DNA of 64,000 nucleotides from Halarcobacter sp. (lineage in GTDB: Bacteria; Campylobacterota; Campylobacteria; Campylobacterales; Arcobacteraceae). The stretch is taken from contig CP182352.1 in NCBI GenBank assembly GCA_048571215.1, positions 1,664,001 to 1,728,000 on the forward strand, written 5' to 3'. The position numbers and the translations under genes were made by a program. Below the pieces are notes generated by a model. The model was given only the letters and a program-made list of their open reading frames with translations, searched no databases and had not been told where the DNA came from. Below, in pieces: positions 29,631 to 58,740 of this stretch (its first letter is position 1; every line of letters begins with the position of its first letter).

Positions 29631-29965
29631 TCTATTTTCCCCTTTACATGAATATATATAATATTTAAAATGAGAAATCAAAAACCACGCAAGTTTTTGT
29701 TTATTTTCCTTTTTAATTATTATATATTTTCATAGTATTTACAATGCAATAACAATTAAAATCAAAAGTGAGAAAACAATACTCTGACTTTGCTACTAAT
29801 AATATCCAGTCGAAAGATATCAAATCCTTTTTCTTTTGCATAATCAGTTTCATCATCTTTTGATACGTATGTATATTTTATATCTAAAAATACTTAATAA
29901 TAATATTAAATATATAATTACTATATAAAGACTTTTTTAAATTTACATTTTTAAGTAGTAATTTC

Positions 29966-30082
29966 ATGGCAAAAAAATTATTAGAAGTAATGAGAGTAAT
30001 GAAAAATAAAATTCATCCTATTAAGAATAATTTATGTCCCCAATTGTATAGCATATCGGGGGCAATACCGGTGCATTATTAA
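29966..30082 (+). pseudogene. IntI N-terminus-like stub (MAKKLLEVMR...)
   Basis: First ten codons resemble the other stubs, then unrelated sequence. Confidence 0.45.
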
Positions 30083-30093
30083 ATTGCCAATTA

Positions 30094-31350
30094 TTAAGGT
30101 TTTTGCCAGTGACCAGTAATAGTAATCATGGAAAGTAATTTTAAAGTATTACCATAATAGTCTTCTTCATTGATAGATTTTTGATTTATATCCAACCACA
30201 AATCATCAAGCCATTCTTGGTTAGATTTATCTATTGTAGCAGCTACAGCAAACATTGATACAAAAGCCATTGAATCAAAGCCACTCTCTTCTGAATGTTT
30301 ACCATCCAAAGTATAAGTATCTGCAATATTCTTAGGGTCACCACCACTAGCTTTTTTGATCCAGTCATTAATTGGTACTAAAGCATCATATGCTCTTTGC
30401 TCATTGTAAAGTATATAATCAAGGGCAATACGCCAAGGGTAACGAACCGCATTCCAAGAGTACTCACCATCACTCTCACCCTCAATAAAATTAGCTTCTG
30501 CTGGTCGAGGATTATCAGAAACATCAACAATAAAGTCAGGAATTAAAGACGTATTCTGGCTGAAAGAATCACGAATATGATTTATGATTAAATAGGTTTG
30601 ATCCCTCACTAGATACCAACTATTATCTTCACTACTGTCAGCAAATGCTTTAAAATGTGAAACCATAAAATCGGAAGATCTCGTTGTTTGAGAATATTGA
30701 CCATCATCAACACGATCAACCCAGTCACCGATACGCACAAATTGATTTATAGGATCAATTTCCAACTGTTTAATTGCTGAAATAACCTTATCTGCCTCGT
30801 CTTTATAATTAATATCACCGGTACTCCCCCATTTACTATCAGCTAATAAAAGTGCATATGCAATATCGAGATCACCATCAGTAGCGCTATTATCTCCACC
30901 AACATCTTCACCTGCATTCTCACATGTTCTCAATTGATTCCAAGCCATTAAGCCTGGATTTGATTTTGCTGGATGGTCATGAAAAAAATACACCATACCA
31001 TTAAATATTTCTTGTGCATCAGGATCAAAACCCGCCATCATCACAGTAATCAACATACCATAACCATGTCCTTCAGAAATACTAAGCGTTGAATCTGCAG
31101 TTCCACCTTCTACAGCTTTACCATCTCCTGCTACATCAACATAATAGCGCCCTTCCCCACATCCTTGACGTAAATAAGTTGCTTTCCATTGTTGATAGAA
31201 GCCAATCAGCTGAGTATCGAGTTCTGCTTGTTCATAAGTAGGTTTAATAACTTCTAATTGTTTGCTATCACCTTGATTCATACTACCACCACATGCCACC
31301 AATACAAAACTTATTAAAACACTTATTAATATTTTATAGAAAATTTTCAT
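30094..31350 (-). CDS. Glycoside hydrolase family 8 lipoprotein
   Basis: Lipobox LVAC, SEGHGYGM, SATDGDLDIAYALLLA, WNAVRYPWR. Confidence 0.85.
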   Translation of the reverse strand: MKIFYKILISVLISFVLVACGGSMNQGDSKQLEVIKPTYEQAELDTQLIGFYQQWKATYLRQGCGEGRYYVDVAGDGKAVEGGTADSTLSISEGHGYGMLITVMMAGFDPDAQEIFNGMVYFFHDHPAKSNPGLMAWNQLRTCENAGEDVGGDNSATDGDLDIAYALLLADSKWGSTGDINYKDEADKVISAIKQLEIDPINQFVRIGDWVDRVDDGQYSQTTRSSDFMVSHFKAFADSSEDNSWYLVRDQTYLIINHIRDSFSQNTSLIPDFIVDVSDNPRPAEANFIEGESDGEYSWNAVRYPWRIALDYILYNEQRAYDALVPINDWIKKASGGDPKNIADTYTLDGKHSEESGFDSMAFVSMFAVAATIDKSNQEWLDDLWLDINQKSINEEDYYGNTLKLLSMITITGHWQKP

Positions 31351-32122
31351 CTTGTTTACCCGTATTTCCTTTTAATGTGATTTAGGAATAGTAGCTTTTC
31401 AAATGGAAAGATTTCATCGTCATTTTTTCTGTAAAATACTAAATTACAGACCCTACAAATGATTCATCATCTTTTGCCTCATCCAAACTAGGCTTATTTC
31501 TGATTCTCTAAAATTAAAATTCAATTTCGTTCATGACTATACTTAGTGATTAACGTTTAACTAAGAACTAAATAGCATATCAACTAATTATATCTCTCAA
31601 AGACTTTGATATGTTTTTTGTTTTTATTTCCTAAAATATTACCAAGATAATATGAAAATAATATTACAAAAAATGATATCACAATATAATATGGAATTTT
31701 GTTTAGTTTTTCAGTAATCATTTTTTTGTTCTCTCAGTTTTATTTCATTTGATGAAGGTTTATAGTAATGTTTAGTATATAAGTAAATTTCCGATTAATA
31801 TCACACCAATAAATAATCCAAAGGGTAACTCAAATATTTTTCTCATACTTTTACCATTTATTATAATAAAATAATTTGATGGTCTCTTTTGATTTGTTAT
31901 ACCTTATTTTTTGGCTTTACCAGCTTCAAGTATCGGCAAATCTGCTTCAGTTGGAATATAAATACGTTCACCTTTACCATCCTAATGTTATACTATTATA
32001 TAACAAAATAATAAATATATCAGGAGAGCATTATCGATAAAAAATAAAATATATGCTTGCACTTCTTTGAGAAAAAGTAATTCAAAAGCTACAAATTTTC
32101 CCCAAGAAATATTAAGAATCTG

Positions 32123-32740
32123 TTATAATCGTTCACTAAATGCTAGCTTAAGCCCAAGTGCAGCAAAGCTCGTTGCAAAAACTTTTTGTATCAGAATACT
32201 AAACCTCTTAGATTTTATAATATACTTGCTAAACAAACCTGATAAAAAGCCATATACAATAAACACAACAAAGGTCATAAGCATAAATACAAAACCTAAT
32301 AAAAGCATAATACTCAATGGGTTTTCTACACTACTAGGAATAAATTGAGGAAGAAAAGCTAAAAAGAAAATTGAAAGTTTAGGGTTTAAGATATTTAGTA
32401 AAAAACCTTTTATAACAAGATTAAAATAGTTATTATTTGAGTTTTGCTTTGAAATATTTAAAGGTGAAGAAGAGCGCCACATTTGCCATGCTAAATAAAG
32501 AAGATAAGCCGCGCCAATATATTTGACAACTTGAAAAGCAAGGGCACTAGTGTGAAATATAGCAGCAAGACCAAAGCTACTAGCTAATAAAGCAGGAACA
32601 ATACCTAAAGTACAACCAACTGCTGCAAAGAAACTAGCACGTTTTCCGACAAACAAACCAGTAGCAATAGTATATAAAACCCCTGTACCTGGAATCAAAA
32701 CAACTACTAGCGAAGTAAGTAAAAACTCAAAAGATATCAT
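32123..32740 (-). CDS. LysE family exporter
   Basis: IPGTG, GAAYLLYLAW, LNPKLSIFFLAFLPQF. Confidence 0.85.
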   Translation of the reverse strand: MISFEFLLTSLVVVLIPGTGVLYTIATGLFVGKRASFFAAVGCTLGIVPALLASSFGLAAIFHTSALAFQVVKYIGAAYLLYLAWQMWRSSSPLNISKQNSNNNYFNLVIKGFLLNILNPKLSIFFLAFLPQFIPSSVENPLSIMLLLGFVFMLMTFVVFIVYGFLSGLFSKYIIKSKRFSILIQKVFATSFAALGLKLAFSERL

Positions 32741-32884: not shown

Positions 32885-32895
32885 GTGAATATTAA

Positions 32896-33676: not shown

Positions 33677-33706
33677 TTTTTTCCTTTTTGATGAGTAGTT
33701 AGATTT

Positions 33707-33740
33707 ACTTAACTATCTATTAAATATACAATATATGTAT
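33707..33740 (-). other. attI-like site (core GTTAAGT)
   Basis: Plus strand acttaactatctattaaatatacaatatatg, similar to the 50424 site. Confidence 0.55.
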
Positions 33741-33910
33741 TTATCATCTAAAATCCATAATAATTATATATCAGTTTCAGATTCAAAACAATTCCCAACT
33801 TTATAAAAAAGCAACTATTAATATTATATCTAAAATACTTAGAATAATATAAAATTTATAATTATTAAATAAAAATTTTAATAATTATATACTTTAGAAT
33901 TTTATAGCTT

Positions 33911-34189: not shown

Positions 34190-34942
34190 ATGCAAGTAAA
34201 CAGTAATCATCACACACGTATTTATGGAGAAATACAAGAGCTTCCCGAACCTACGCCATTAGATAAAGAGACAGTAAATGCAATAAGAGAAGCTCAGAAA
34301 AAGGTAGATGAAGAAAGAAAAGAGTATGTTCCTACAAGTAAACAATTAGATGAAAATCCTTGGTTAAAAAATGCAGCAACTGGGCTTAATAAAGTCTCAG
34401 ATATTATTAAAGACTATGAAAGAGGCATTGATGGTTCTGGAAAATTTACAATATCGAAATTGACAAATGACTCTTTTGATGTCGTAAATGACAAAGATGA
34501 AGTTACTGGTACCTATGGTATTTTTTCAAAGGTAGATGAAGCAACTATCCACTTACCTTGGGATGATGAGAATTATACAAGAGAAGGTACAAAAGAAACA
34601 ACAGGTATGAGTCTAAGATATACATATACTTCATACGAAGATCATTCTTTTAAAAGTGCTGATATATCATTTGATCTTAAAAACACTGATATAGAGATTG
34701 ATTTTAATAAACTTACTGATAAATTAAAAAGTGACAAAGAGTTTGAAAAAAACTTTTTATCTGCTTTGGATGATTATATGAATAATAATAACAGTAGTAA
34801 ACTCATTAATTATTTAAAACAAGCCTTAGAACTTGAAAATGCAGATTTAAGTGTAAAAGAACCTAGCACTTCATCAATATATGGTAATAAAGGAAATTTA
34901 AACTCTATAAATAATAGTTCACATTTAAGCCTTTTATCATAA
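34190..34942 (+). CDS. Hypothetical protein
   Basis: 250-aa ORF with AAGGA RBS. Confidence 0.65.
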   Translation: MQVNSNHHTRIYGEIQELPEPTPLDKETVNAIREAQKKVDEERKEYVPTSKQLDENPWLKNAATGLNKVSDIIKDYERGIDGSGKFTISKLTNDSFDVVNDKDEVTGTYGIFSKVDEATIHLPWDDENYTREGTKETTGMSLRYTYTSYEDHSFKSADISFDLKNTDIEIDFNKLTDKLKSDKEFEKNFLSALDDYMNNNNSSKLINYLKQALELENADLSVKEPSTSSIYGNKGNLNSINNSSHLSLLS

Positions 34943-37819: not shown

Positions 37820-37841
37820 TTAACTTTCCTTTTCTTAAAAT

Positions 37842-37975
37842 ATATAGTATTTGAGTTGAAAAACAAGGAGATATTTTTACTTAGTTCTTCAAAAGGTTTA
37901 ATTAAATTACTTTACAAGATAAAAGCTTAATAAATGCATTATTACCTTATTTTTCTTTCCAAGGTCTTATTACAC
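37842..37975 (-). other. Degenerate attC
   Basis: Minus strand gtgtaat-aagaccttggaaagaaaaataagg ... ccttgtttttcaactcaaat-actatat; same arms as the 48875 attC, both cores mutated. Confidence 0.6.
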
Positions 37976-39805: not shown

Positions 39806-39937
39806 ACATAATGGTGAAATTGAAAAATGAGGGTATTTTACATTTGATAGTTCAATTCACATTTTTGTTAGTTTACAAGATAAAGCTTTAAATTATCGCA
39901 AATAACCCTTGTTTTTCTTTCCAATAATTTGTTATGC
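39806..39937 (-). other. attC with mutated R' core
   Basis: GCATAAC-aaattattggaaagaaaaacaaggg ... ccctcatttttcaatttcacc-ATTATGT; R'' overlaps the stop of 39932..40384. Confidence 0.7.
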
Positions 39938-40590: not shown

Positions 40591-40690
40591 GAAACAATAA
40601 ATAAACACTCGGCTTCTCAAATGTGGGAAAGTGGGAAATTGACCTTTGCATTTTTTGATACCATTTTATTTGAATTGGTGTAATACTCAA
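40591..40690 (+). repeat. Structured repeat copy A (partial)
   Basis: aataaacactcggcttctcaaatgtgggaaagtggg...ggtgtaatactcaa. Confidence 0.85.
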
Positions 40691-40726
40691 TTTATACAAA
40701 GAAAGTTTGCAGCTAGTGTATTTAGT

Positions 40727-40887: not shown

Positions 40888-41107
40888 TTGCTTTTTGTCT
40901 TACTTTTTACAACTAAAAAGTGAGAAAGCGAAGAACTTGTTCTTTAAGACAATTGCATACAATAAAAACTATTATCAAAATATTTGAGTATAAATAAACT
41001 TTTACTATACGTCTTAATTTCTATCGACTTTCTTTTGTGAAAAAGAAAGTAGCAAAGAAGTTGCCACCTTAAAAAATGATAAAATATAAAATATTTAAAT
41101 CTAATAT

Positions 41108-42091
41108 TTATGATATACTTTTAAATTTATTAGGGTCATATATATTATTATTTTTATATAATGAGTGAGCAATTACAATCATTTTTCGCATTACAGCAAT
41201 TTGTGCTACAGTAGTATGTTTGCCATTCTCTTTTAATCTATTATAAAATATTTTTAATTCTTCATTGTATTGTATCGCTGTCATTACTGCCATAAATAAT
41301 GTACCCCTACATAATTTTGAACCAGATTTTGATATTTTTGTTTTTCCTTTTATTGATGAACCAGAATCTCTACTAACTGGATCTAATCCAGCTAATGAAA
41401 CAATTTGCTTTTGATTTGTATCAGGATATTGTATAAAATGGTGTAATAATATAATTGAAGATAATTCTCCTATGCCTTTTATAGTTTGGATATTTAAAAA
41501 TGCATTATGTAAATTTTTGTCTTTTGCAATAACTTTTTTTATCTCAATAAGAATATCTTTTTCTTTTTTTTCAAATGATTTTATATCTTTTCTTAATGAT
41601 TTAATTATAATAGATGAAGCATCTTTTGAAACTAAAGCTTCCAAATGATTTTTATTTTGAGTTTTAATTTTTGATATAAATTTATAATATGTAATAAGCT
41701 CTTTTAATTCCTCGGCATAAGGATTAATAATGGGTATTTTAATCTGATTTTTTCTTGCAGTAACTATCATCTGAGATAACATTCTAGCATCTAAAAGGTC
41801 AGTTTTATTTCTTTGACCAATTGCTTTAGCAAAGTTAGCACTTTTCTTTGGATTAACAATAAAACAGTGTATACTTTTTTCAGAACAAAACTTTTTAATT
41901 AAAAAGGAATAATTAGCTGTAGGTTCAAAAACAAATACAAGTTTATCTATATCTTTTTTATAAAGTTTTTTTAACTTAGAATAAAAACCTTTAAGTGATT
42001 TCAAATTATTTGATATTTGAATATCTAAATCATTGATAGGGATATAAATATTAATTGTTGACTTACTTATATCTAATCCGATAGAATACAT
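41108..42091 (-). CDS. IS110-family recombinase/transposase
   Basis: IGLDISK, FEPTANY, KTDLLDA, IKGIG, AGLDP..RDSGSS, AVMRKM. Confidence 0.93.
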   Translation of the reverse strand: MYSIGLDISKSTINIYIPINDLDIQISNNLKSLKGFYSKLKKLYKKDIDKLVFVFEPTANYSFLIKKFCSEKSIHCFIVNPKKSANFAKAIGQRNKTDLLDARMLSQMIVTARKNQIKIPIINPYAEELKELITYYKFISKIKTQNKNHLEALVSKDASSIIIKSLRKDIKSFEKKEKDILIEIKKVIAKDKNLHNAFLNIQTIKGIGELSSIILLHHFIQYPDTNQKQIVSLAGLDPVSRDSGSSIKGKTKISKSGSKLCRGTLFMAVMTAIQYNEELKIFYNRLKENGKHTTVAQIAVMRKMIVIAHSLYKNNNIYDPNKFKSIS

Positions 42092-42109
42092 ATCTAGAAC
42101 CTTTGTATT

Positions 42110-42325
42110 AATATAAAGAGTTCGTTAGGGTAGGAATAAAATTCCTACCTGATATTTCGTCATACAAACTTTAGACTCGTAAATACGAACTAGTTATAAA
42201 ACTGTTCTTGTTGCCACTCAAATTTGAAGTATAACTATTGAACTTCTTTACAAGCTAATTAAAATTATTTTTAATTGCTTCAACCACCCACACAATATAT
42301 CATCTTCTATTGAACTCTATGAAAA
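42110..42325 (-). ncRNA. Putative IS110 bridge RNA
   Basis: Two hairpin-centred loops with GGGTGGTT/GTAAAGAA (target-like) and GTGGCAAC/TACGA (donor-like) segments; TATAAT at the element end; boundaries approximate. Confidence 0.65.
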
Positions 42326-42664
42326 TATACTATCATATTTCCAATATTTTATTATACGAACCATCCCACAGGTTTCGAAGGTGAAACTACTCTCGCTTAT
42401 TATTCATCCCTTTTGAGTGCCTAAAAACTTGCTAAAACGTTCTCCCAGAACGTTTCTTTAGGCTTCAAACAGTTTAGTCACTTGTTTTCAAAAGAGATAA
42501 ATAAACACTCGGCTTCTCAAATGTGGGAAAGTGGGATAAGGACCTTTGCATTTTTTATACCATTTTATTTAAGCTGGTGTGATACTCAATAATTATTATA
42601 AAATGTGGAGATTCAACTTCTGGGGTGTTACTTTAGAAGTATCTATTTTTAATAGAAAGATGTA

Positions 42665-44066: not shown

Positions 44067-44072
44067 CTTCTC

Positions 44073-44231: not shown

Positions 44232-47207
44232 TTACTCAACTACTCCAGTACCAAAAGATGTTCCATCTGTCATGATTTTAGCTTGATTTTCTCCATATCC
44301 CATACTCATGTCAAGAAGTATTTTATTATCTAACAAAATCTTATTTATATACAGTTCATCATAAGCATATTTTAAAGTTGGAAATTCTTTTAATAATGTT
44401 GTCCCTTCTGTAGTACCATCACTTATCCATAATTGAATGTAAGTCTCATAGTTGCTAGAAGACGATAAATTTGTGATTTCTGCGACTATTAAAATTTTAC
44501 CATTCAACTCAAAAATACTTTTAATACCTGCCACATTAGTATCATCAATATTAGGTATTTTTTTAACTTCTGTTATAGTTGTTGGATTTATTTTCCATAA
44601 TGCCCCATTTATAACCTTATAGCTTATATTATTAACCGTTAAACTATTACCAAAATATGAATCACTTGAGCCAACTTTCAAATCTTCTACCATAACTGTA
44701 CCAGCTTCAGTTCCATCACTTTTCCATAATTCTTTACCATGTACACCATCATCTGCATCAAAAAACACAGTACCATTAACATCAATTAAGTTTCTTGGAT
44801 AACTCCAATTTGTTCCAACTCTAATATCTTTAATTATACTTGTACCTGCTTCTGTTCCATCACTCTTCCATAATTCTCCACCGTTAGCGCTATCATTATT
44901 ATAAAAAAATAAAATTCCATCACTCATAATTAAATCTTGAGGGGAAGAACCATAATCAGTAAGAGGTATTGTGCCTACTTCAGTACCATCACTTTTCCAT
45001 AATCTAGTTTTGTTATTTCCTTCGTTACCTGCAAAATAAAAAATATTATTATCAGCAACAGTAAAGTTATATAAATACGCAAAGTTATCTTTTATTTTTA
45101 CTGTTCCATTTTCAGTACCATCACTTTTCCAAAGGGAATCTATGCCATTATTGTCTTCAATTGTAAAATATAGAGTTCCATTAACATTGGTTAAATTAGT
45201 AGGGTTTGATGAATTTGCACCAATAACTATATCTTTTACTATCACTGTACCAGATTCAGTTCCATCACTTTTCCATAACTCTTTACCATGCTCTACATCT
45301 AAAGCTGTAAAATAGTATGTATTATTAATCTTAGTTAAACTGCTAACTGATGAACTTGCTATTTTTGTATTTATGTCTTTTAGTATCTTTGTGCCATTTT
45401 CTGTTCCATCACTTATCCATAGTTCAGCTCCATGATTATTATCACTCATAGTATAAATAAATTTTTCTCCCAATATTACACCAGATTCCGAAGTCCAAGA
45501 ATTCGATTCTGAAAGTATATTCGTTTTTAAAGGAGTGAGCGTTTCACTTGTAGTATTAAAGATTGATAATGTTTGATTACCCGTATTCTTATCCATTTGA
45601 GCTATATATAAAATATTATCTATTGGTGATTTTGAGATTGATGTATAATCTGATAAATCTAATAATTTTGTTGTATTATTAACTGTGCCATCAGTTTTCC
45701 ATATACTATCATTTGGCCATACATTATTATGTAAATATACAGTTTGATTATCTTCACTAAAGAAATCAAATGTATTAGATACTTCACCTGATGTTCTTGT
45801 TATTAATTTGATAGTTCCTACTTCAGTACCATCACTAATCCAAACATTTCCTCTTTGATAAAAATATACATTTTCTCCAAAAATTGAAAAAGCACCTGGA
45901 TCATAATCACTATTATATGTATAAAGAGTATTAATCTTTATAGTACCAATGTCTGTACCATCACTTACCCATAAATTTGTTTCTGTGTTGATAGCCGTCA
46001 TAAATATCTTAGTTGCTGTTGCAGCAAGTGTATTGATATATTCTCCTAAGTCTTTTACTAAAATAGTACCACTTCCTGTACCATCACTTTCCCATAATTC
46101 TTTGCCTATAGAAAAATAAAGTTTATTATTAAAGGTTGTGATTTTAGAAAAATAACTTGGTAAATCTTTCACCAAAACAGTACCATTTTCAGTTCCGTCA
46201 CTTTTCCATAAATCACCAGAATTATTATCATCATACAACCTAAAATAAGCAACTCCATTTAGATTTGTAATAGCTTCAATAGAAACATTGGAAGAACCAG
46301 TTCTTGTAAACTCCTTAATGAATGTTGTTCCATTTTCTGTTCCATCACTTTTCCAAATACTACCATATCCGTTTGAAGTATTGCTATCATATCTATTTTG
46401 AGTAAAATAGAGTACTCCCCCTATATCAGTTAATCTTCCACAACTACCTGTTTTTAGTAATATAGTTCCATTTTCTGTTCCATCTGTCCTCCATAGTCCA
46501 CTTCCATTATTATCTGAAGCCGTAAAATAAGTGTAACTACCAACTGTTATGAAATTTGATGGAGATGATGATTGTGTTGCTGTATTTATTTTTTTAACAA
46601 CTGTTGTATCTATTCCGTTAGTACTTATTAATTCTCCATCTCTTGAGACAGTAATATTTTTTTGTGATGATAAGTCAAAAGTATTTTTCAAATGTTCTAT
46701 AGCTTTATATTTGAAAACTGGTTCTTTATTTGAAGCTTTTATTATTGCATCTAGTTTTGTTGTATTTATATCTTTTAAATTTAATGATTCAACAAACATT
46801 CCATGAATAGAACTGTCAATGTTTATTTCATTCGTAATATTTCCATCATCATCTAATGATTGTAATAATATAGCTAATTTTGCTGTGTATTCATCATCAA
46901 AGTTTGTTCTATCTACATTTGCTATATCCTGTAAGTAAATATTTTTATCATTTGTAAAGCCATCTATGCTGCCAATTATTAAATTACCTATCTTAAACGT
47001 AATAGTTGCACCACTTTCACATTCAAACTTTCCATTTGCTTGTGTAGTTCCATTGATGTCTCCACACTCATAATTTATACCAACTACGGGTGAATCAATT
47101 AAATACCCTGTTACTAATTGTGAAGATGAAGTGCTACTTCCACCACCGCAACCATTTAAAAATACTATGAAAAGTATTAAAACTATTATTGAAATTTTGT
47201 TTTTCAT
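44232..47207 (-). CDS. ELWxxDGT-repeat lipoprotein (cassette gene)
   Basis: Lipobox LNGC, many (E)LWKSDGTxxGT repeats. Confidence 0.85.
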   Translation of the reverse strand: MKNKISIIVLILFIVFLNGCGGGSSTSSSQLVTGYLIDSPVVGINYECGDINGTTQANGKFECESGATITFKIGNLIIGSIDGFTNDKNIYLQDIANVDRTNFDDEYTAKLAILLQSLDDDGNITNEINIDSSIHGMFVESLNLKDINTTKLDAIIKASNKEPVFKYKAIEHLKNTFDLSSQKNITVSRDGELISTNGIDTTVVKKINTATQSSSPSNFITVGSYTYFTASDNNGSGLWRTDGTENGTILLKTGSCGRLTDIGGVLYFTQNRYDSNTSNGYGSIWKSDGTENGTTFIKEFTRTGSSNVSIEAITNLNGVAYFRLYDDNNSGDLWKSDGTENGTVLVKDLPSYFSKITTFNNKLYFSIGKELWESDGTGSGTILVKDLGEYINTLAATATKIFMTAINTETNLWVSDGTDIGTIKINTLYTYNSDYDPGAFSIFGENVYFYQRGNVWISDGTEVGTIKLITRTSGEVSNTFDFFSEDNQTVYLHNNVWPNDSIWKTDGTVNNTTKLLDLSDYTSISKSPIDNILYIAQMDKNTGNQTLSIFNTTSETLTPLKTNILSESNSWTSESGVILGEKFIYTMSDNNHGAELWISDGTENGTKILKDINTKIASSSVSSLTKINNTYYFTALDVEHGKELWKSDGTESGTVIVKDIVIGANSSNPTNLTNVNGTLYFTIEDNNGIDSLWKSDGTENGTVKIKDNFAYLYNFTVADNNIFYFAGNEGNNKTRLWKSDGTEVGTIPLTDYGSSPQDLIMSDGILFFYNNDSANGGELWKSDGTEAGTSIIKDIRVGTNWSYPRNLIDVNGTVFFDADDGVHGKELWKSDGTEAGTVMVEDLKVGSSDSYFGNSLTVNNISYKVINGALWKINPTTITEVKKIPNIDDTNVAGIKSIFELNGKILIVAEITNLSSSSNYETYIQLWISDGTTEGTTLLKEFPTLKYAYDELYINKILLDNKILLDMSMGYGENQAKIMTDGTSFGTGVVE

Positions 47208-47222
47208 GTCTGTCCTTCGTAT

Positions 47223-47260
47223 GTCTAACTATTTGTTAGTACTACATTATATATAAATAA
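47223..47260 (-). other. attI-like simple site with adjacent TATAAT
   Basis: Minus strand tataatgtagta-CTAAC-aaata-GTTAGAC; identity with the 56186 copy stops at the core. Confidence 0.75.
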
Positions 47261-47640
47261 TATATAAAATCACCTAATAGCACTACATTTTTTATGATAA
47301 GATACTAAATTGCTATAAAGCCCTTAAATAAGCTATTTTTAATATTATTTAAATAATATATTACAATATATAATATTTTTTAAACCTAAATTGTATATTT
47401 GATATAATTTTTAATATTAGACTATTAACGTATATCTGTAATAGCTTATCAAAATGTTATGCTATTGATTAAAAATCGTAATAGTTTAACAAAATGCTAA
47501 ATATATCAGGAGTAAAAAATGGATAAGAAACTACTAGATATTATGAGTGATAAATTCTAAATATTCACTTTTTTATTGAAAAAAGTAAAACAAAAAGCAA
47601 CCCGCGGGTTTCGAAGGCAGAAGCTTCCCTCGCTTATTAT
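47225..47640 (+). repeat. Near-identical duplicate of 56188-56603 (attI, promoter region, IntI stub, repeat start)
   Basis: Constant offset of 8963 bp, few substitutions. Confidence 0.9.
47519..47560 (+). pseudogene. IntI stub MDKKLLDIMSDKF*
   Basis: AGGAG RBS, divergent from attI, fused to repeat C. Confidence 0.65.
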
Positions 47641-47893
47641 TTATCCCTTTTGAATGCCTAAAAACTTGCTCTTGTGCTTGCACTCTCTGTGAGAAAACGT
47701 GAATTAGTCACGTTTCTTTACGCTTCAAACAGTTTAGTCACTTGTTTTCAAAAGAGACAAATAAACACTCAGCTTCTCAAATGCGGGAAGGTGGGATAAT
47801 GACCTTTGCATTTTTTGATACCATTTTATTTTAGTTGGTGTGATACTCAATAATAATTATAAAAGTGGAGATTCATCCTCTAGGGTGTTATTT
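47555..47893 (+). repeat. Structured repeat copy C
   Basis: Shared conserved blocks, ends gggtgttattt. Confidence 0.9.
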
Positions 47894-47894
47894 T

Positions 47895-47922
47895 AATATT
47901 TCTCTCCAATGATTTGTTAGAC
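47895..47922 (-). other. Truncated attC (left arm only)
   Basis: GTCTAAC-aaatcattggagagaaatat then the repeat end; R'' complements GTTAGAC at 48404. Confidence 0.75.
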
Positions 47923-48403: not shown

Positions 48404-48474
48404 GTCTAACGTTTAAGTTGAGAAATAGTTTTGCCCGCTAGGGTAAACTATTTCTCTCCAAGGTTTTATTATAA
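48404..48474 (-). other. attC (71 bp)
   Basis: TTATAAT-aaaaccttggagagaaatagttt ... aaactatttctcaacttaaac-GTTAGAC. Confidence 0.85.
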
Positions 48475-48809: not shown

Positions 48810-48874
48810 ATATTGAATCCTTTTGTTGTTTATTTTATATATTTTAGCTAATTTTACTTGGTATTTAAATTTAA

Positions 48875-49009
48875 TTATAACGTTGGACTTGAAAAACAAG
48901 GAGGATGATAGCACTTGATTATTTCAGTTCTCATTTTAGCTATTTTGTTCTAAAAAGTTTATACTAACCGCAGTATACCCTTGTTTTTCTTTCCAATGTT
49001 TTGTTATAT
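48875..49009 (-). other. attC (135 bp)
   Basis: ATATAAC-aaaacattggaaagaaaaacaagg ... ccttgtttttcaagtccaac-GTTATAA. Confidence 0.85.
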
Positions 49010-49012: not shown

Positions 49013-50410
49013 TTAAAAACCAAGATTGAAATCATCAATTAAATCAATGATTACATCAGATGGATCATCATTTTTATATTTTCTCAAAAGCATTTCTCTT
49101 AAATGCTCGTTGTTTAAAAAAATAATTAATTTGTTTTTTTCTATAAAAATATCTTTTCTTTTCTCAATGCCACTTTGATTTGGAAGTTTTTTACTACATA
49201 TGATTCCAAATCTACCAATTGTTTGCTTTAAATAATCATCAATTTGAAGCAATACAGATTTGTCAATTTCACTTCCATTTTTAGAATAGTTTTTAAACTC
49301 AAACACTATATATTTTGCATCATAGTCATCCCTAATAAATTTCCAATTTTCATTACTATTTCGATTGGGATATATAGCATCTCTTATATCAATACCAGAT
49401 TCCCTCCGTGATTGTATTTTAGGTTTGCCAAGTGGTGGTACAAATAAGTAATTTAAAATATCTACACAAATATCTTCATATATTTTCCAACCTTCTTTTC
49501 CTTCTGGACATTCATCTAATCTTTTGATTAATTTTTGTATATTTTCTAACTCTTTATCAATTAATTTAATTTTTTGTTTTTTTGTAAAAGTTTTTTTATT
49601 GAAATATTCTTTTATTAAATGAGGGTGTGAAAAAAGTTTTTGAATTAGTTTATGTCTATCCCATATAATAATATTGGAGGTATTTTGCACTAAAAAATCA
49701 TGAGAACTTTTAGTAATTTCAGAATTTGTAATAAGTAAAATATTATTAGCTTTTTCGATAGTTGAAATTCCAATTAATTTCCTTAATACTTCAATTGATA
49801 TTTTCTGATTTTTATAAAACCTAGCTTCAACTATTGTTTTTTCCTCAATACCTAGTATATTTTTTGTCTTGGTTATAAAATCATACCCACCATCTTTTGT
49901 GGGTGGAGTTCTTTTTACTTCAAAATTTTCTGATAAAAGAAGATCATACACTAAATTTTCAAACTTTCTCCCATCAAAACTTGACCAATCTTGTAATTCA
50001 TAATCTACATTACCAGTTTGTAGTAATGCCTTTTTTAGAATATCTAAACCAATTTCTTTATTTTTTGAAAAATCAGCATATAAGTAATTAGATAAATCAT
50101 ATGGGATTGTTGAATTGTCAATTTTAATTGGTAGAATTTTAATGCCTCTATTACTGGCATTTTGTAATAAAGCAGAATTTAGTTCGTATTGCATCCATTT
50201 TGAAGTTAAAGAAGAATTACTTAACACAAAAATAAACGCATTGCTAGATTCAATACCAGATACAATTTTATCTTGAATACTATCACCGAGTTGAATCTCT
50301 TTTTGATCATACCAAATATCATAATTAGTATCTTGTAAATTTGCATTAAGCCATTCAACAAATTCTTTATCTTCATGTGAATAACTAATAAAAACTTGTT
50401 TCTTCATCAC
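49013..50410 (-). CDS. TIR domain + Mrr-like + second restriction-endonuclease-like domain (probable defence cassette)
   Basis: VFISYSHED, SKWMQYEL; FENLV..DGGYDF..VEARFY; RDAIY..FEFKNY. Confidence 0.75.
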   Translation of the reverse strand: MMKKQVFISYSHEDKEFVEWLNANLQDTNYDIWYDQKEIQLGDSIQDKIVSGIESSNAFIFVLSNSSLTSKWMQYELNSALLQNASNRGIKILPIKIDNSTIPYDLSNYLYADFSKNKEIGLDILKKALLQTGNVDYELQDWSSFDGRKFENLVYDLLLSENFEVKRTPPTKDGGYDFITKTKNILGIEEKTIVEARFYKNQKISIEVLRKLIGISTIEKANNILLITNSEITKSSHDFLVQNTSNIIIWDRHKLIQKLFSHPHLIKEYFNKKTFTKKQKIKLIDKELENIQKLIKRLDECPEGKEGWKIYEDICVDILNYLFVPPLGKPKIQSRRESGIDIRDAIYPNRNSNENWKFIRDDYDAKYIVFEFKNYSKNGSEIDKSVLLQIDDYLKQTIGRFGIICSKKLPNQSGIEKRKDIFIEKNKLIIFLNNEHLREMLLRKYKNDDPSDVIIDLIDDFNLGF

Positions 50411-50423
50411 TTTCCTTATCTAT

Positions 50424-50460
50424 ATATAACTATTTATTGAATATACATTATATAAATAAA
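50424..50460 (-). other. attI-like site (core GTTATAT)
   Basis: Core complements ATATAAC at the end of the same cassette (49003-49009). Confidence 0.7.
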
Positions 50461-50705
50461 GTACTTAAATCCACTACTTTATTATATATTTAGTAGAAAA
50501 GCTTATTTCATGCATCTTTATAGAGGAATATTACAAAATACAATATTTTTTCTATATATTTTTATTATAAGTTATAATTTTTATATATATTTAATGTCGA
50601 TATTTGGAACTTTTATATATATAATGTATGTTAAAAGTGAAAATTTAACTTTAAATAACATTTTGATTATTTAACAAAATGATAAATATATTATGTGTAT
50701 TTGGA

Positions 50706-51069
50706 TAATACTATTATCAAAATATTTGAGTGTAAACTAACTTTTGCTGTACGTCTTAACTTATTCCGACTTTCTTTTATAAAAAAGAAAGTAGCAAAGA
50801 AATTATCCCGCAGGTTTCGAAAGTGAAACTTCCCTCGCTTATTATTTCACTTTTCTGTTTTTCAAAACTCGCTAAAACGTAAGTTAGTTACGTTTCTTTA
50901 CGCTCTAACAGTTGAAAAACTTTTCCGAAAAGCAAAATAAACACTCGGCTTCTCAAATGCGGGAAAGTGGGATAAGGACCTTTGCATTTTTTTATACCAT
51001 TTTATTTTAATTGGTGTGATACTCAACAATTATTATAAAAGTGGAGATTCATTCTCTGGGGTGTTATTT
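50706..51069 (+). repeat. Structured repeat copy D
   Basis: Conserved blocks; uninterrupted IS110 target site near 50790-50815. Confidence 0.9.
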
Positions 51070-51276
51070 TAAAGCAACTATAAACAAATGTATAGATGGA
51101 ACATGAAACTATTATCGATGATTATACTACTAAAATGAATACAAAAAAAGCAAGAGATATAGTTAGAAAAAGAGCTTCAATTGTAGAGCATCCATTTTGC
51201 AAGTGTGAATTCCATTTCACTTCATGGTACAATAAAAAGAACTTTAGGTTGGGATCATTTTTTAGTAAGAGGAAAA
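51070..51276 (+). pseudogene. IS1182-like transposase C-terminal fragment with a 28-bp insert
   Basis: RKRASIVEHPF [51198-51225] GTIKRTLGWDHFLVRGK. Confidence 0.7.
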
Positions 51277-51481
51277 CAAAAGGCAAGCATACAACAGCTG
51301 TTCAAATTGCACTTATGCGAAAAATGATAATTATTGCACATTCTTTATATAAAAATGACATACAATATGACAAAGATTTTTATAAAAAAAGTTGTGGATT
51401 TCAAGAGTAGAAAACTACTCTTGATTTAAGAAATTGATTTAATTAAAATTTATAAATTTCAAGTTTTTTTAAGGTGGCGAC
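51277..51481 (+). mobile_element. IS110 3' remnant with element end
   Basis: GKHTTAVQIALMRKMIIIAHSLYKN matches the C-terminus of 41108..42091; ends tttttaaggtggcgac. Confidence 0.8.
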
Positions 51482-53208: not shown

Positions 53209-53225
53209 TTTTTTCTCCTATAAAT

Positions 53226-53260
53226 ACTTAACTATTTAATAATAATACATTATATATATT
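53226..53260 (-). other. attI-like site (core GTTAAGT)
   Basis: Plus strand acttaactatttaataataatacattatata. Confidence 0.65.
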
Positions 53261-53466
53261 TATTGCTTAATTATCTCAACTACTAGATATTTACATAAAA
53301 TATCCTTAAAATAGGTATTCAATGAAAGTTTATTACAAAATGTAATATTTTTGAATTGATTTTTTATTTTTAATTATAATTAAAATATATATTTTTTGTC
53401 TAAATAACTGTAATAACAATACACTATGTATGTTAATTGGAAAAAAACATAATAATACTGATACAA

Positions 53467-53508
53467 ATGACTAAAAAATTACTTGATATTATGAGGAATA
53501 AATTCTAA
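53467..53508 (+). pseudogene. IntI stub MTKKLLDIMRNKF*
   Basis: Divergent from the 53226 attI, fused to repeat E. Confidence 0.6.
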
Positions 53509-53853
53509 ATATTCACTTTTTGCCTGCAAGCAGGATTACATATTGAAAAAAGTAAAATAAAAATAACCCGCGGGTTTCGAAGATGAAACTTCCCTCGTTT
53601 ATTATTTATTGTTTCTGTTTCGTCTTGTGCTTGCACTCTCTTTGAGAAAACTCACATAAAAATATGCTCCTAGCATATTTGTTCTGTTCAAACAGTTACA
53701 AAACTTCTCCGAAACAATAAATAAACACATGGCTTCTCAAATGCGGAAAAGTGGGATAATGACCTTTACTTTTTTAAGTATCATTTTATTTTAGTTGGTG
53801 TAATACTCAACAATTATTATAAAAGTGGAGATTCATTCTCTGGGGTGTTATTT
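53503..53853 (+). repeat. Structured repeat copy E
   Basis: Conserved blocks, two mini-inserts. Confidence 0.9.
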
Positions 53854-53886
53854 TTTTCTATATATTTTTATAGTTTAGGAGATATT

Positions 53887-53928
53887 ATGGGTAAAAAACT
53901 ACTTGATATAATAAAGGATAAATTTTAA
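53887..53928 (+). pseudogene. IntI stub MGKKLLDIIKDKF*
   Basis: AGGAG RBS, fused to repeat F. Confidence 0.6.
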
Positions 53929-54153
53929 ATATTCACTTTTTTGCCTGCAAGCAGGATTAGATATTGAAAAAAGTAAAATAAAACCATCCCACAGGTTTCG
54001 AAGATAAAACTTCCCTCGCTTATTATTTATTGCTTCTCAAATGCGGGAAAGTGGGATAATGACCTTTGCATTTTTTGATACCATTTTATTTTAGTTGGTG
54101 TGATACTCAATAATTATTATAAAAGTGGAGATTCATCCTCTGGAGTGTTATTT
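53923..54153 (+). repeat. Structured repeat copy F (inner arm deleted)
   Basis: tatttattg joined directly to cttctcaaatgcggg. Confidence 0.9.
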
Positions 54154-54900: not shown

Positions 54901-54914
54901 GACCCATATTTTCT

Positions 54915-54991
54915 TTTAGTTGGTGTGATACTCAATAATTATTATAAAAGTGGAGATTCAACCTCAGGGGTGTTATTTAGGGGTGTTATTT
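54915..54991 (+). repeat. Structured repeat copy G (terminal part, last 13 bp tandemly duplicated)
   Basis: aggggtgttattt occurs twice. Confidence 0.85.
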
Positions 54992-55001
54992 TCAAGGTTC
55001 T

Positions 55002-55682
55002 TTAAAGTTTAATTGCTTTTGTAATAGCAAAATTATACATTCTCCAATAACAAGCACTTTGTTGAAACCCAACTTCTTTTAACCAATCAAAATGATTTGA
55101 TAAAATAATTGGAAAATCTTTTTCAATATGTTTTTCATACCAAAACTCTGGGTTTTCACCTTGCTCTTTCATAAACTGTTTCCAAAGAGAATATTGATGT
55201 TCTCTAACCTCTTTATCTTCATCTATGATAATATCATTTGAGATATAAACTGCATTTTGATTTGCACTATTAAAAAGTTTTTGATAAAAAACTTTTCTCT
55301 CTTCCCAATTTAGATGATGTAGTGTCATACCTGTTAAAATTATATCGTATGATTTTCCAATTGAATCTATTTTATAATCCCCTTGGATCAATTCATAGTT
55401 TTTTGTATATTTTGATATTTTTTGTTCATAAGCTTTTAGCATTTCAGTAGTAATATCAAATCCAGTGATATGTGAATTTGGAAGTTTCTTTAAAACAATT
55501 TCAGACAATATACCATTACCACAACCTAAATCCAATACTTTATAATTTTTACTTTTATTGTTTGGTAATAAATCAAATATGATTTTATGTTGTTCTAAAT
55601 ATTGTGGAACCAATCTTATCATCAATGCTTCATAATCAGAAGCTTGTTGTGCAAAATGTTCTTGTATATTTATATCTTTCAT
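55002..55682 (-). CDS. Class I SAM-dependent methyltransferase (cassette gene)
   Basis: VLDLGCGNG, TLHHL; ATG just after attC core GTTAGAG. Confidence 0.85.
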   Translation of the reverse strand: MKDINIQEHFAQQASDYEALMIRLVPQYLEQHKIIFDLLPNNKSKNYKVLDLGCGNGILSEIVLKKLPNSHITGFDITTEMLKAYEQKISKYTKNYELIQGDYKIDSIGKSYDIILTGMTLHHLNWEERKVFYQKLFNSANQNAVYISNDIIIDEDKEVREHQYSLWKQFMKEQGENPEFWYEKHIEKDFPIILSNHFDWLKEVGFQQSACYWRMYNFAITKAIKL

Positions 55683-55688
55683 TTTATC

Positions 55689-55744
55689 CTCTAACGCCTC
55701 AATCAGCCGATGCATTAGCGGTCGGCTGAATTGATTTGTTAGCG
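55689..55744 (-). other. Short GC-rich attC (56 bp)
   Basis: CGCTAAC-aaatcaattcagccga-ccgctaatgca-tcggctgattgaggc-GTTAGAG. Confidence 0.9.
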
Positions 55745-56185: not shown

Positions 56186-56223
56186 TGCTAACTATTTATT
56201 AGTACTATATTATATATAAATAA
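56186..56223 (-). other. attI-like site (core GTTAGCA)
   Basis: Duplicate of the 47223 site; GTTAGC complements GCTAAC of the cassette's attC. Confidence 0.75.
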
Positions 56224-56481
56224 TATATAAATTCACCTAATAGCACTACATTTTTTATGATAAGATACTAAATTGCTATAAAGCCCTTAAATAAGCTATT
56301 TTTAGTATTATTTAAATAATATATTACAATATGTAATATTTTATAAACCTAAATTGTATATTTGATATAATTTTTAATGTTAGACTATTAACGTATATCC
56401 GTAATAGCTTATCAAAATGTTATGCTATTGATTAAAAATCGTAATAGTTTAACAAAATGCTAAATATATCAGGAGTAAAAA

Positions 56482-56523
56482 ATGGATAAGAAACTACTAG
56501 ATATTATGAGTGATAAATTCTAA
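56482..56523 (+). pseudogene. IntI stub MDKKLLDIMSDKF*
   Basis: Identical to the 47519 stub. Confidence 0.65.
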
Positions 56524-56812
56524 ATATTCACTTTTTTATTGAAAAAAGTAAAACAAAAAGCAACCCGCGGGTTTCGAAGGCAGAAGCTCCCCTCGCTTAT
56601 TATTTATTGTTTCTGTTTTGTAAAACTCACATAAAAATATGCTCCTAGCATATTTGTTCTGTTCAAACAGTTACAAAACTTTTCCGAAACAATAAATAAG
56701 CACTCAGCTTCTCAAATGCGGGAAGGTGGGAAACTGACCTTTGCATTTTTTAGTACCATTTTATTTTAGTGGGTGTGATACTCAACAATTATTATAAAAG
56801 TGGAGACTCATT
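56518..56812 (+). repeat. Structured repeat copy H (terminus clipped)
   Basis: Conserved blocks up to gtggagactcattc. Confidence 0.9.
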
Positions 56813-57161
56813 CTTTATAGTTTATTTTTTTATAATAACCTGCATTCCTCAAATCATTTATTCTAAATATTAGTACATAATATAAAGATGGCATTACTGA
56901 TACTATATAAACTGCAAAAATTAAAAATAGATAAAAATTTGAGCTATTTATTAAAGTTCTATAAGTATTTATTAAATAAAAGAGAGGATAAATACTAATT
57001 AAACTATAAATAAGATATATAATAAAACCTAAAAAAGTAACAAAATTTTTTTTAAATTTTTTTATTTTTATTAAAAAGTATACATATATTTTAGATATTA
57101 TTAAAAGTAAAACACTTGATATAATTATAAATATAATTAACTCTAATATATTCTCTATCAT
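56808..57161 (-). CDS. Hypothetical membrane protein; stop supplied by repeat H
   Basis: Three TM segments, AGGTG RBS. Confidence 0.55.
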   Translation of the reverse strand: MIENILELIIFIIISSVLLLIISKIYVYFLIKIKKFKKNFVTFLGFIIYLIYSLISIYPLFYLINTYRTLINSSNFYLFLIFAVYIVSVMPSLYYVLIFRINDLRNAGYYKKINYKE

Positions 57162-57247
57162 TTTTCACCTTTGCATGGACAATAATATCAAAAATAATTA
57201 TATTAATAAATAAAGTGATGTTATAAATATTAGATTTTAATTTTAAT

Positions 57248-57325
57248 CAAGGCGAAGTGAAAATTTTAAGAGGAGCGTACATGCAAGTACATGAGTATTA
57301 AATTTTTTACTTCCAACAACGCGTC
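57248..57325. repeat. Short palindromic element with ggagcgtac..gtac core
   Basis: caaggcgaagtgaaaattttaa-gaggagcgtac-atgcaa-gtacatga..ttaaattttttacttc; related to 58741. Confidence 0.55.
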
Positions 57326-57787
57326 TGGTTGCTTTTTGCCTTACTTTTTAGAACATGTAATCCTGCTTGCAGGCAAAAAAGTGAGAAAACGGAAAGCCTC
57401 GCTCTACAAGACAACTGCATACAGTTAATACTATTATCAAAATATTTGAGTATAAATAAACTTTTGAAGTACGTCTTAACTCTTCTCGACTTTTTTTATG
57501 AAAAAAAAGTAGCAAAAAATCACCCGCGGAGTTTTGGAGGTGAAACTACCCTCGCTTATTATTTATTGTTTCTGTTTTGTAAAACTCACATAAAAATATG
57601 CTCCCAGCATATTTGTTCTGTTCAAACAGTTACAAAACTTCTCCAAAACAATAAATAAACACTCGGCTTCTCAAATGCGGGAAGGTGGGATTATGACCTT
57701 TGCATTTTTTTATACCATTTTATTTTAATTGGTATAATACTCAACAATTATTATAAAAGTGGAGATTCATCCTCTAGGGTATTATTT
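57314..57787 (+). repeat. Structured repeat copy I (long form)
   Basis: Colinear with the reassembled copy B. Confidence 0.9.
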
Positions 57788-58431
57788 TAATATTTATAAA
57801 TATATTTAGGTAAAAAAATGAAAATCAAATAATTAAGTATAAAAAGTATACATGCAGGCAACATTGAAATAATAAAAAAAAGCCCACTAAAACAGCCACT
57901 TCCACAAGTGTTTCCTTCATACCAAAGATATAATGCACCTAAGGTGGGGAGAATAGATAAAATAAATAAAAATTTTCCAAAAAATAAATATTTATTTTTC
58001 TTTTTTAAAATATTATATATTTTATAAGAAGGTATTAGTGGTATTAAATGTGCTAATACCAATACAAAAGTAAAAAAAAACATAAACTCGGATTTAATTA
58101 TAAATAAAAAAGGAAAACTCAATAATATTGCAATTAAAAAATAGTATAAAACGAATTTATAATTAATTTTTTCTTTCTTAATACTAATATAATTATTCAC
58201 TTTATATATTTTATTATCTAAAATTAATGTTTTTTCAGTTAATAAAATATAATCATTAATTGTATCATAATAAAAACTTTCATCATTTTCTACGATAAAG
58301 ACAATTTTATTATATAAATTAGTTTCATCAACAGCTAAATATGGGTAGTTTTTCTTAATCTCATCTTCAACTGATAATGGACTTTTTTTATTATTTAATA
58401 ATATAAGTTTTATTGTATCTCTTAAATTCAT
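57787..58431 (-). CDS. Hypothetical membrane protein
   Basis: Four C-terminal TM segments; stop abuts the repeat terminus. Confidence 0.55.
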   Translation of the reverse strand: MNLRDTIKLILLNNKKSPLSVEDEIKKNYPYLAVDETNLYNKIVFIVENDESFYYDTINDYILLTEKTLILDNKIYKVNNYISIKKEKINYKFVLYYFLIAILLSFPFLFIIKSEFMFFFTFVLVLAHLIPLIPSYKIYNILKKKNKYLFFGKFLFILSILPTLGALYLWYEGNTCGSGCFSGLFFIISMLPACILFILNYLIFIFLPKYIYKY

Positions 58432-58740
58432 AGTATTCTTTTTTAAAAATCATAAAAAAGATTATAATATATATGCTCTAAAATATTATTGAATTGTAAA
58501 AAACATCATCCATTTTTACTTTAAAATTGAGATTATAATGCCACTAAAAATTAAGACAAGAATTTTAAAAGATTAATCTCAAAAATAATTAAAGTTAATT
58601 TATGAATTTCCATTTTCATACCTTTTTAATTTAAATTAGTAAATTATAATTAAAATATTTATAATAAAAAATATATATTACAATATGCAATAAAAAGTGA
58701 TGTTAGAAATTTTAAGTTTAGTTAATTAAATAATATAGAA

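Follow-up and report, generated by a model that had tools for sequence, protein, structure and literature searches.

The guaB-side stretch of a Halarcobacter-type chromosome is an integron array that has lost its own integrase gene and consists of segments, with a copy of the genus attI and the ~300-nt attI-intI spacer at the head of each. It lies within the window analysed here, a stretch of 64 kb (genome 1664001-1728000) from a one-contig, 3.61-Mb genome with a G+C content of ~27%; coordinates are window positions unless marked 'genome', and Gxxx labels denote the genomes of genus relatives, of which 24 were compared. The segments also carry stumps of the integrase gene intI and a structured repeat (SR), and sequence comparison suggests that this architecture is a new integron variant, which would be segmented, multi-attI and served by an integrase in trans, and would include a new structured repeat. 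The reading favoured as a whole, in which the balance tips slightly beyond even, is that of a segmented multi-attI array with IntI acting in trans, fronts that spread by circle insertion and the SR as a boundary.

In integron biology each integrase is taken to have a single attI and a single promoter, and clusters of attC sites lacking integrases (CALINs) are defined by at least two attC sites with no integrase nearby, and without an attI. The guaB-side island (29900-58858) contains six attC sites and one half site, and a search with the integron integrase profile TIGR02249 found no intI in the window, as a first-pass annotation of the same DNA had claimed; only 13-codon stubs of the gene are present there. 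In these respects the island resembles a CALIN, but it also has a hallmark of a complete integron, since it is headed by five sites that are homologues of the attI next to the genome's real intI. Nearly all genes of the island are on the minus strand, and their functions are mutually unrelated according to Pfam (GH8, LysE, DsbA-like, LprI, PhzF, haem-binding domain, glyoxalase, TIR-Mrr, metallophosphatase and methyltransferase); a 991-aa repeat lipoprotein is encoded as well, and many of the proteins have no Pfam family.

Copies of attI and remnants of intI

The sole integron integrase of the genome that exceeds the TIGR02249 (NCBIfam) cut-off (398 bits vs 265) is encoded at genome 895245-896189, 770 kb from the window, by an intact gene convergent with the neighbouring guaA; the integrase in trans that had been postulated earlier thus has one counterpart. 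The attI beside it reads TATATAATGTATGTTCAATAAATA followed by GTTGTTC, and its ~300-nt spacer to intI is homologous to the spacers of the window. In the minus-strand reading the layout of the window's attI sites is TATATAATGTA-N-AATAAATA, then the core G/TTRRRY (the slash marks the junction) and a start codon, which in the window lies 20-37 nt downstream of each core on the minus strand.

All five attI-like sites reported in the first-pass annotation proved real, as the pattern TAACTATYT..TACATTATA has three exact matches (47226, 50427 and 53229) against a chance expectation of 0.01, with none of 100 shuffles reaching three, and the copies at 56186 and 33707 are one or two letters off. The minus-strand copy at 47216-47275 (core G/TTAGAC, G at 47229) is homologous to the real attI (genome 896440-896505) and heads the cassette of the 991-aa lipoprotein, which closes with GTCTAAC at 44206. 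Likewise on the minus strand, the copy at 50417-50476 (G/TTATAT, G at 50430; 96% identity to the real attI over 27 nt) heads a TIR-Mrr cassette closing with ATATAAC at 49008, and the copy at 53219-53278 (G/TTAAGT, G at 53232) heads the gene of a 570-aa metallophosphatase, for which no matching R'' box was found and which is followed by fragments of insertion sequences (IS). The minus-strand copy at 56188-56238 (G/TTAGCA, G at 56192) heads the cassette of a 157-aa membrane protein, whose attC opens with CGCTAAC (6/7 match). The fifth copy (33700-33751, minus strand; G/TTAAGT, G at 33713) is weaker and diverged: it shares 85% identity with the 53.2-kb attI over 39 nt, lacks spacer homology and has no R'' to match. 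Divergent from this weak attI, where an intI would sit, lies a 250-aa gene without a family (34190-34942), the one plus-strand gene of appreciable size in the island.

Four of the window copies retain ~300 nt of the attI-intI spacer, a putative promoter region. In the 47-kb front the spacer (47276-47510) is homologous to that beside the real intI and 91% identical to the intI-linked fronts of G017 and G008; further copies lie at 56239-56473 and, assigned by position between mapped neighbours rather than by separate alignment, at ~53279-53464 and ~50477-50660. In four fronts the first 13 codons of intI are joined to the SR at one identical point. The resulting 14-codon open reading frames (ORFs), counting the stop codon, are found on the plus strand at 47519-47560, 53467-53508, 53887-53928 and 56482-56523; they read MDKKLLDIMSDKF (twice, one of them at 47519-47560), MTKKLLDIMRNKF and MGKKLLDIIKDKF, and, as had been proposed, they match the N-terminus of the genuine IntI, MGKKLLDIMKDKIRFKHYS (shorter form MGKKLLDIMKDKIRF). 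Seven such stub ORFs occur genome-wide, including these four, and the other fronts carry a 'B segment' (50661-50790 and 57426-57508 in the window). This segment is regarded as a degenerate stub because its local alignment to the stub region scores 83, compared with a shuffle mean of 45 (sd 6.2); for its stub part alone, the observed score was reached by 1 of 500 shuffles. A check named in the first-pass annotation was whether such segments run on into full intI, and in relatives the attI-to-stub segment of the 47-kb front indeed continues into intI residues 1-320, with 91% identity in G017 (where intI is frameshifted) and 79% in G015.

Evidence that the attI copies were used by an integrase

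The R'' box of a cassette must be complementary to the cassette's own first bases, and this leaves a signature at the attI copies. The reverse complement of the junction hexamer was sought within -31 to +25 nt of the stop codon of the first ORF, with two of the 21 intact-core copies of the genome left out for want of an ORF call. In 13 of the 19 copies the first cassette closes with this hexamer, followed by the start of an attC, whereas mismatched pairings of cores and cassette ends gave 17 of 316. Aligned with one another, 18 attI copies have a mean pairwise identity of 0.71-0.76 over the last 45 nt ahead of G/TT and of 0.28-0.32 straight after it; across most of the ~300 nt upstream the value ranges from 0.46 to 0.63 (0.69 in one thinly covered bin). 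The break in conservation at G/TT and the frequency of the junction signature together argue for use of the attI copies by an integrase, and these sequence features indicate that cassettes were inserted at them by an integron integrase.

attC sites and cassettes

An attC site is marked by the R'' box RYYYAAC, the R' box GTTRRRY, an imperfect L''/L' helix with extrahelical bases and a length of ~55-140 nt, and such sites were recognized in the window by eye and by folding of single-stranded DNA (ssDNA). By these boxes and folds all five attC sites listed in the first-pass annotation were found, and a sixth site and a half site were added. The short attC family of the genus (~69 nt) has the form RYYYAAC-AAAAC-ATTGGAGAGAAATA..loop..TATTTCTC-AACTCAAAC-GTTRRRY with a 3-nt bulge. 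A covariance model, R1, was built from 11 short-type sites lying outside the window (eight elsewhere in the genome and three from two relatives), and it recognizes the short-type site TTATAAT...GTTAGAC at 48404-48474, which also has the expected ssDNA fold, with 81.3 bits (E 2.6e-16). Genome-wide, R1 finds ~20 short-type sites at E<1e-3, every one of them within the array loci.

The remaining sites, all on the minus strand like the first, are of several kinds. Long-type sites recognized by their fold lie at 48872-49008 (ATATAAC...GTTATAA; 16.1 bits with the short-type model) and 44079-44206 (GTCTAAC...GTTAAAA; 14.1 bits with R1). Two further long sites have degenerate cores, one at 39806-39933 (R' ATTATGT; a partial match of 19.2 bits with R1) and the other at 37838-37972, the added attC-like site, which is supported by its fold. 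A short, GC-richer attC (55689-55744, CGCTAAC...GTTAGAG) overlaps the end of the 157-aa gene, and the half site of a glyoxalase cassette (47895-47922, R''-L'' only; 17.5 bits) runs straight into an SR copy. The core complementarity described earlier for five pairs is present in every one: GTTAGAC (47229) with GTCTAAC (44206), GTTAGAC (48404) with GTCTAAC (47922), GTTATAT (50430) with ATATAAC (49008), GTTATAA (48878) with TTATAAT (48474) and GTTAGC (56192) with GCTAAC (55743), the last in 6 of 7 letters only.

Pattern searches of a general kind were uninformative. A generic attC scanner requiring R''/R' complementarity inside one site gave no gain over shuffles, and an earlier scan of the same kind also missed the clear attC sites; sites within an array need not show such complementarity. 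A strict L'' expression recovered only three true attC sites, and a loose attI expression gave 485 genome matches and no discrimination. In a genome of ~27% G+C such results could mean that the features are not related to integrons at all and reflect chance similarity in AT-rich intergenic DNA or ordinary promoter regions. This is very improbable in view of the three exact attI matches where 0.01 was expected, the homology over ~300 nt with the real intI-attI region and with the intI-linked fronts of relatives, the 81-bit attC match obtained with an independent model and the result of the junction test (13/19 vs 17/316).

Cassettes have moved between the arrays of this genome, since two window cassettes have copies of 94-98% identity elsewhere. 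The methyltransferase cassette (54995-55736, minus strand) has a 95%-identical twin in another array (genome 1805582-1806323), which closes with a normal long attC; in the window copy the homology ends 7 nt past the stop codon and an SR fragment follows. The cassette at 43779-44080 has copies of 98% and 94% identity in other arrays. The first cassette at attI 50430 encodes a defence-like protein with TIR and Mrr-type nuclease domains (49013-50410, minus strand; Pfam PF13676 and PF04471; PADLOC defence candidates PDC-S66 at 5e-24 and PDC-M36A at 1e-22). By eye, the first gene after the real attI (genome 896696-897439) likewise opens like a TIR-domain protein. The 991-aa predicted lipoprotein (44232-47207), the first cassette at attI 47229, consists of ~13 repeats of a ...LWKSDGTEAGT... 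unit and has no Pfam match. The intergenic stretch 43187-43581 translates as an NlpC/P60-like fragment (..GNGKFIHASSGKANSVTISD.., by eye) and is probably a broken cassette gene. In one metatranscriptome run (contigs; 9% of sampled words), the 991-aa gene was matched by exact pieces, and SR and degenerate stub by diverged ones, in a form in which strand, start and end are not visible.

Distribution of fronts in the genome and the genus

The first-pass annotation took the fronts to be stacked at one locus, which is not the case, as 21 attI copies with an intact GTT core are distributed over 10 loci, and feature mapping gave about four more with degenerate cores. In genome coordinates the intact-core loci are 431k (1), 896k (1), 957-967k (3), 1465-1473k (3), the window (5), 1803-1807k (2), 1938-1940k (2), 1978k (1), 2745k (1) and 2823-2829k (2). 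The usual order in cassette sense is one or more units of a so-called extension, SR and degenerate stub, then a stub or degenerate stub, the spacer, attI and cassettes, and SR and attI share one orientation wherever a locus contains the two. Beside guaA, the integron with the intact intI holds two more, degenerate attI copies of its own; in this integron one attI-plus-spacer segment stands directly after a complete attC, that is, in cassette position, and another attI copy is only ~50 nt long. It also contains, twice, a ~190-nt GC-rich, gene-less cassette with its own attC (genome 896493-896680 and 898385-898570; locus L052, ~2494-2681 and 4386-4571); one copy lies directly at the attI, and the base composition is foreign to a genome of 27% G+C. 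The idea that the fronts are of foreign origin receives some support, in that the 47.2-kb front is 91% identical to the intI-linked fronts of two other species and 68% identical to that of its own genome.

Of the 24 relatives, at least seven have an integron beside guaA; its intI is intact in G002, G003 and G024, has decayed in G017, G006 and G022, and is missing through deletion in G008. Intact intI occurs in 7 of 25 genus genomes, and in none of them beside guaB. Remnants on the guaB side include an attI-spacer-intI-guaB arrangement in G015, in which intI is broken by frameshifts and a 23-nt insert, a deletion after intI codon 13 in G011 and the loss of the whole intI between two 12-nt repeats in G024; SR, stub or attI modules also lie beside guaB in G012, G016, G023, G006 and G017.

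The guaB-side locus is hypervariable, because flank distances differ and few ORFs are shared. The conserved right flank begins with guaB (58859-60304, minus strand), followed by gatA, rplQ, rpoA and rpsD, and the distance from guaB to a conserved left-flank gene (27225-28013) is 30.8 kb here vs 7.8-15.5 kb in G012, G016, G006 and G018. Only 3 of 23 island ORFs (LysE, DsbA-like and haem-binding) have a homologue of at least 70% identity in ten guaB-side regions of 5-20 kb from relatives. The variability anticipated in the first-pass annotation is thus seen between species. On the left flank, a pseudouridine-synthase-like gene (28212-28841) lies 1-21 kb from guaA on the same contig in 12 of the 13 relatives that have it, with the integron between the two genes in several relatives; here 798 kb separate it from guaA, and it stands at the guaB island's far end. 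This suggests that guaA-linked array material was joined to a guaB-linked array.

The variety of decay in the genus gives some weight to the view that the fronts are fossil debris, that is, inert leftovers of decayed and duplicated platforms in which attI and SR are merely repeated DNA that promotes rearrangements, with no capture or expression today. The integrase gene has been broken or lost in several ways (frameshifts and the insert in G015, the deletion in G011, the repeats in G024), a front at genome 1940 kb lacks any stub, G012 and G023 retain modules with no intI found at E<=1e-30, and the 33.7-kb attI and several others have degenerate cores. Such debris would hardly be expected to show an attI core better conserved than the DNA around it, with an abrupt break at G/TT, or a junction signature intact in 13 of 19 copies; nor does it fit well with an intact IntI with a matching attI in this genome, or with 94-98% identical cassette copies common to different arrays. 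This view is considered rather unlikely, though it is a serious contender.

The structured repeat

The structured repeat of the first-pass annotation is present in the window as seven near-complete copies and two fragments. The reference copy is located at 47560-47905 (minus strand, favoured by covariation and consensus structure), the others at 42359-42635, 50775-51072, 53541-53854, 53962-54153, 56523-56828 and 57489-57795, and the fragments at 40599-40691 and 54908-54978. The repeat is ~300 nt long, with 34 near-full copies in the genome and multiple strong copies in eight relatives, all in the genus, and an exact 25-mer of its core was found only in three records titled Arcobacter or Halarcobacter metagenome-assembled genomes (27 stretches). 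Searches of the window against Rfam 15 returned no match at gathering score, and permissive settings gave only 13-20 bits, far under gathering.

The consensus structure was derived from an alignment of 42 copies (31 from this genome, the other 11 from loci of relatives), of which 40 were used for folding after two deletion variants had been dropped. The consensus fold reaches -53.5 on the cassette-sense strand vs -44.2 on the other strand, and in the former 95% of the cells are paired, compared with 43-52% when partners are slid. Pairs changed on both sides number 14, against 2-3 in the slid controls and 7 when the other strand is given its own fold, with the changes falling into about three variant lineages, and the cassette-sense fold has 292 G-U cells vs 21 A-C cells. 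By eye, compensatory changes occur in the long central stem, its terminal hairpin and the closing helix CCCRCA/UGYGGG, which is followed by a U-rich tract, and also in a small hairpin, GAA-NN-UUC-N'N'-C-UUC, in which NN/N'N' is GU/AC, CC/GG or GC/GC. These data lend moderate support to the SR being an RNA-level element that would be transcribed with the cassettes. The repeat is also mosaic: the 47-kb and 56-kb fronts share a 98%-identical spacer but differ in SR variant, and SR end types and central-stem variants occur in all combinations.

Several other identities of the SR were rejected. It was weighed as a retron RNA, as a group II intron and as an RNA of the omega or bridge type, and these are disfavoured by the lack of an Rfam match and of a neighbouring reverse transcriptase or nuclease gene, and by the IS110 copies being later insertions into the SR. 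Conserved small ORFs were looked for in the SR, and by eye the frames are broken in several copies. A long palindrome in the extension is not an attC, as its boxes are in the wrong order (by eye).

A further alternative is that SR and extension form a non-autonomous element resembling a MITE (a transposable element of miniature size, with inverted repeats), which would take the 5' end of intI and the loops of attC as specific insertion sites, knock out integrases and carry or copy the neighbouring attI front. The unit has the size (~550 nt), the copy number (34 near-full copies, limited to one genus) and the inverted repeats of such an element, the last being ~40 nt long and located at the stub-side end of the SR and the far end of the extension (by eye and by opposite-strand matches); moreover, the stub-SR junction is identical although front spacers differ by 25-30%, and the SR abuts truncated attC sites. 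On the other hand, neither a target-site duplication nor an autonomous element with matching ends turned up in this genome, the only one in which such a partner was looked for. Tandem units share a constant spacer that includes the degenerate stub, which fits duplication better than repeated insertion, and the G-U asymmetry indicates constraint at the RNA level. A MITE-like origin is judged unlikely.

The SR has itself been invaded by other elements. An IS110-family insertion sequence lies within an SR copy at 41058-42360 (minus strand; transposase 41108-42091, Pfam PF01548 and PF02371), and it is one of four copies of 100% identity (the others at genome 1467504, 2521358 and 2826473), all in the same orientation between the SR end and the degenerate stub. 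Its left non-coding end holds TGTGGGTGGTT, a near-match by eye to the target flank TGTGGGATGGTT, a likeness compatible with its being the guide of a bridge-type RNA. The extension houses three copies of another IS110 type (75% identity), and remnants at 51096-51480 (plus strand) comprise a C-terminal IS110 transposase fragment and an IS end. In addition, a 23-nt insert, CTCAMAGAGAGTGCAAGCACAAG, follows TTTT in six SR copies, where it occupies one or the other of two positions, and it recurs once in the extension and once inside the intI of G015, where the frame is broken (window 47669-47693 and 53622-53646; genome 958064, 971112, 1803910, 1804524 and 387974; locus L031 of G015, ~17856-17880). 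A related insert of ~20 nt, GCCTGCAAGCAGGATTACAT, occurs in SR hairpin loops in either orientation, and both share the palindrome core TGCAAGCA. Parts of the CTCAMAGAGAGTGCAAGCACAAG insert have 100% matches in other genera, and this insert looks like a tiny mobile hairpin or a transposition footprint.

A model of segmentation and dispersal

In the favoured reading of a segmented multi-attI array, the one intact IntI beside guaA, with its closely similar attI, would serve all attI and attC sites in trans, so that one integrase would run many heads for capture and expression, and each spacer would supply a putative promoter for its own short segment. Fronts might multiply and disperse by the usual attI x attC reaction in which circle and chromosome have swapped parts, an attI-bearing circle entering a chromosomal attC. 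An attI-plus-spacer segment right after a complete attC, together with an attI copy of ~50 nt, as in the guaA-linked integron, is what the insertion of attI-bearing circles into attC would give. Both the circles and the tandem copies may arise by homologous exchange between SR copies, a possibility that follows from the mosaicism of the repeat. Finally, the SR would act as an RNA on the cassette-sense strand and form the 3' boundary of the preceding segment.

A number of observations weigh against this reading. In two cases the SR follows a truncated attC (R''-L'' only in the glyoxalase cassette, and homology ending 7 nt past the stop codon in the methyltransferase cassette), which the circle model leaves unexplained; the SR therefore also replaces parts of attC sites. 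Six of the 19 junction tests fail, and the long-type window sites score only 14-19 bits with R1, a model of this genus's short sites and not that of IntegronFinder. Promoter activity is predicted only, within a body of support that consists of sequence comparison and computation, and promoter-like hexamers are no commoner in the spacers than in shuffles (9 found, 5.8 expected), a consensus scan being uninformative in AT-rich DNA. The SR structure was scored on the alignment from which it was derived, the other strand's own consensus fold is also rich in G-U cells (331), and single SR copies fold no better than shuffles (z -1.6 and -1.3). In G012 and G023, SR and attI copies persist with no intI at E<=1e-30, and fronts can therefore be kept without an integrase, as fossils.

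A more far-reaching form of the model is possible but doubtful. It holds that integrase-less fronts, composed of attI, promoter spacer, intI stump and a new structured RNA, may be mobile units that spread through arrays and the chromosome by attI x attC insertion, with one integrase serving about twenty heads. Long silent arrays would thereby become many short expressed operons, and the SR would be needed for this, either to bound the segments or to regulate the integrase by way of the antisense stub.

Relation to known integrons and significance

Full-text searches of the literature, supplements aside, brought up neither a chromosomal integron with several attI copies and integrase stumps nor any account of integrons in this genus. 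The closest parallels are the sedentary chromosomal integron and the CALIN, which (Cury et al. 2016, PMC4889954) share with the present array promoterless, attC-bounded cassettes with no integrase nearby and an intact integrase elsewhere in the genome. Unlike in a CALIN, each segment here has an attI, a spacer and an intI remnant, and the genome has 21 attI copies per one intact intI.

A truncated second integrase is also a feature of the complex integron of Salmonella genomic island 1 (SGI1). In this class 1 integron cassettes are found at a first and a second attI (PMC7056807), and like the present array it is a single structure with several attI sites that have cassettes of their own. In SGI1 there are two such sites on a recent mobile resistance element, brought about by duplication of the 5' segment (PMC7056807), whereas here ~20 diverged chromosomal copies belong to a sedentary integron and are fused to the SR. 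Gene-less cassettes of Vibrio superintegrons that carry promoters (Blanco et al. 2024, PMC11014356) and outward promoters in group IIC-attC introns (PMC3001079) are comparable as non-coding array elements that would restart transcription of downstream cassettes. Those elements are ordinary cassettes or introns lacking an attI, while the candidate promoter described here is accompanied by a second capture site and an intI remnant. With regard to the invaders of the SR, the IS110-family element ISPpu9 is reported to insert into REP sequences (PMC12288879), which is similar to the four identical IS110-family copies at the same SR position and orientation; here the IS is a secondary invader of the SR and not part of the front.

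To conclude, the many-head architecture touches on the questions of how cassettes far from a promoter or in integrase-less clusters are expressed, and how such clusters originate. The genus offers a natural alternative to the usual arrangement, with many attI-plus-spacer heads per integrase at conserved chromosomal sites beside guaA and guaB, and it adds a ~300-nt conserved structured repeat without a match to a known RNA family. Since standard tools ignore chromosomal attI, arrays of this type would be reported as plain integrase-less clusters, and the same architecture may be overlooked elsewhere. Furthermore, the system allows a direct test of whether attC sites capture attI-bearing DNA.

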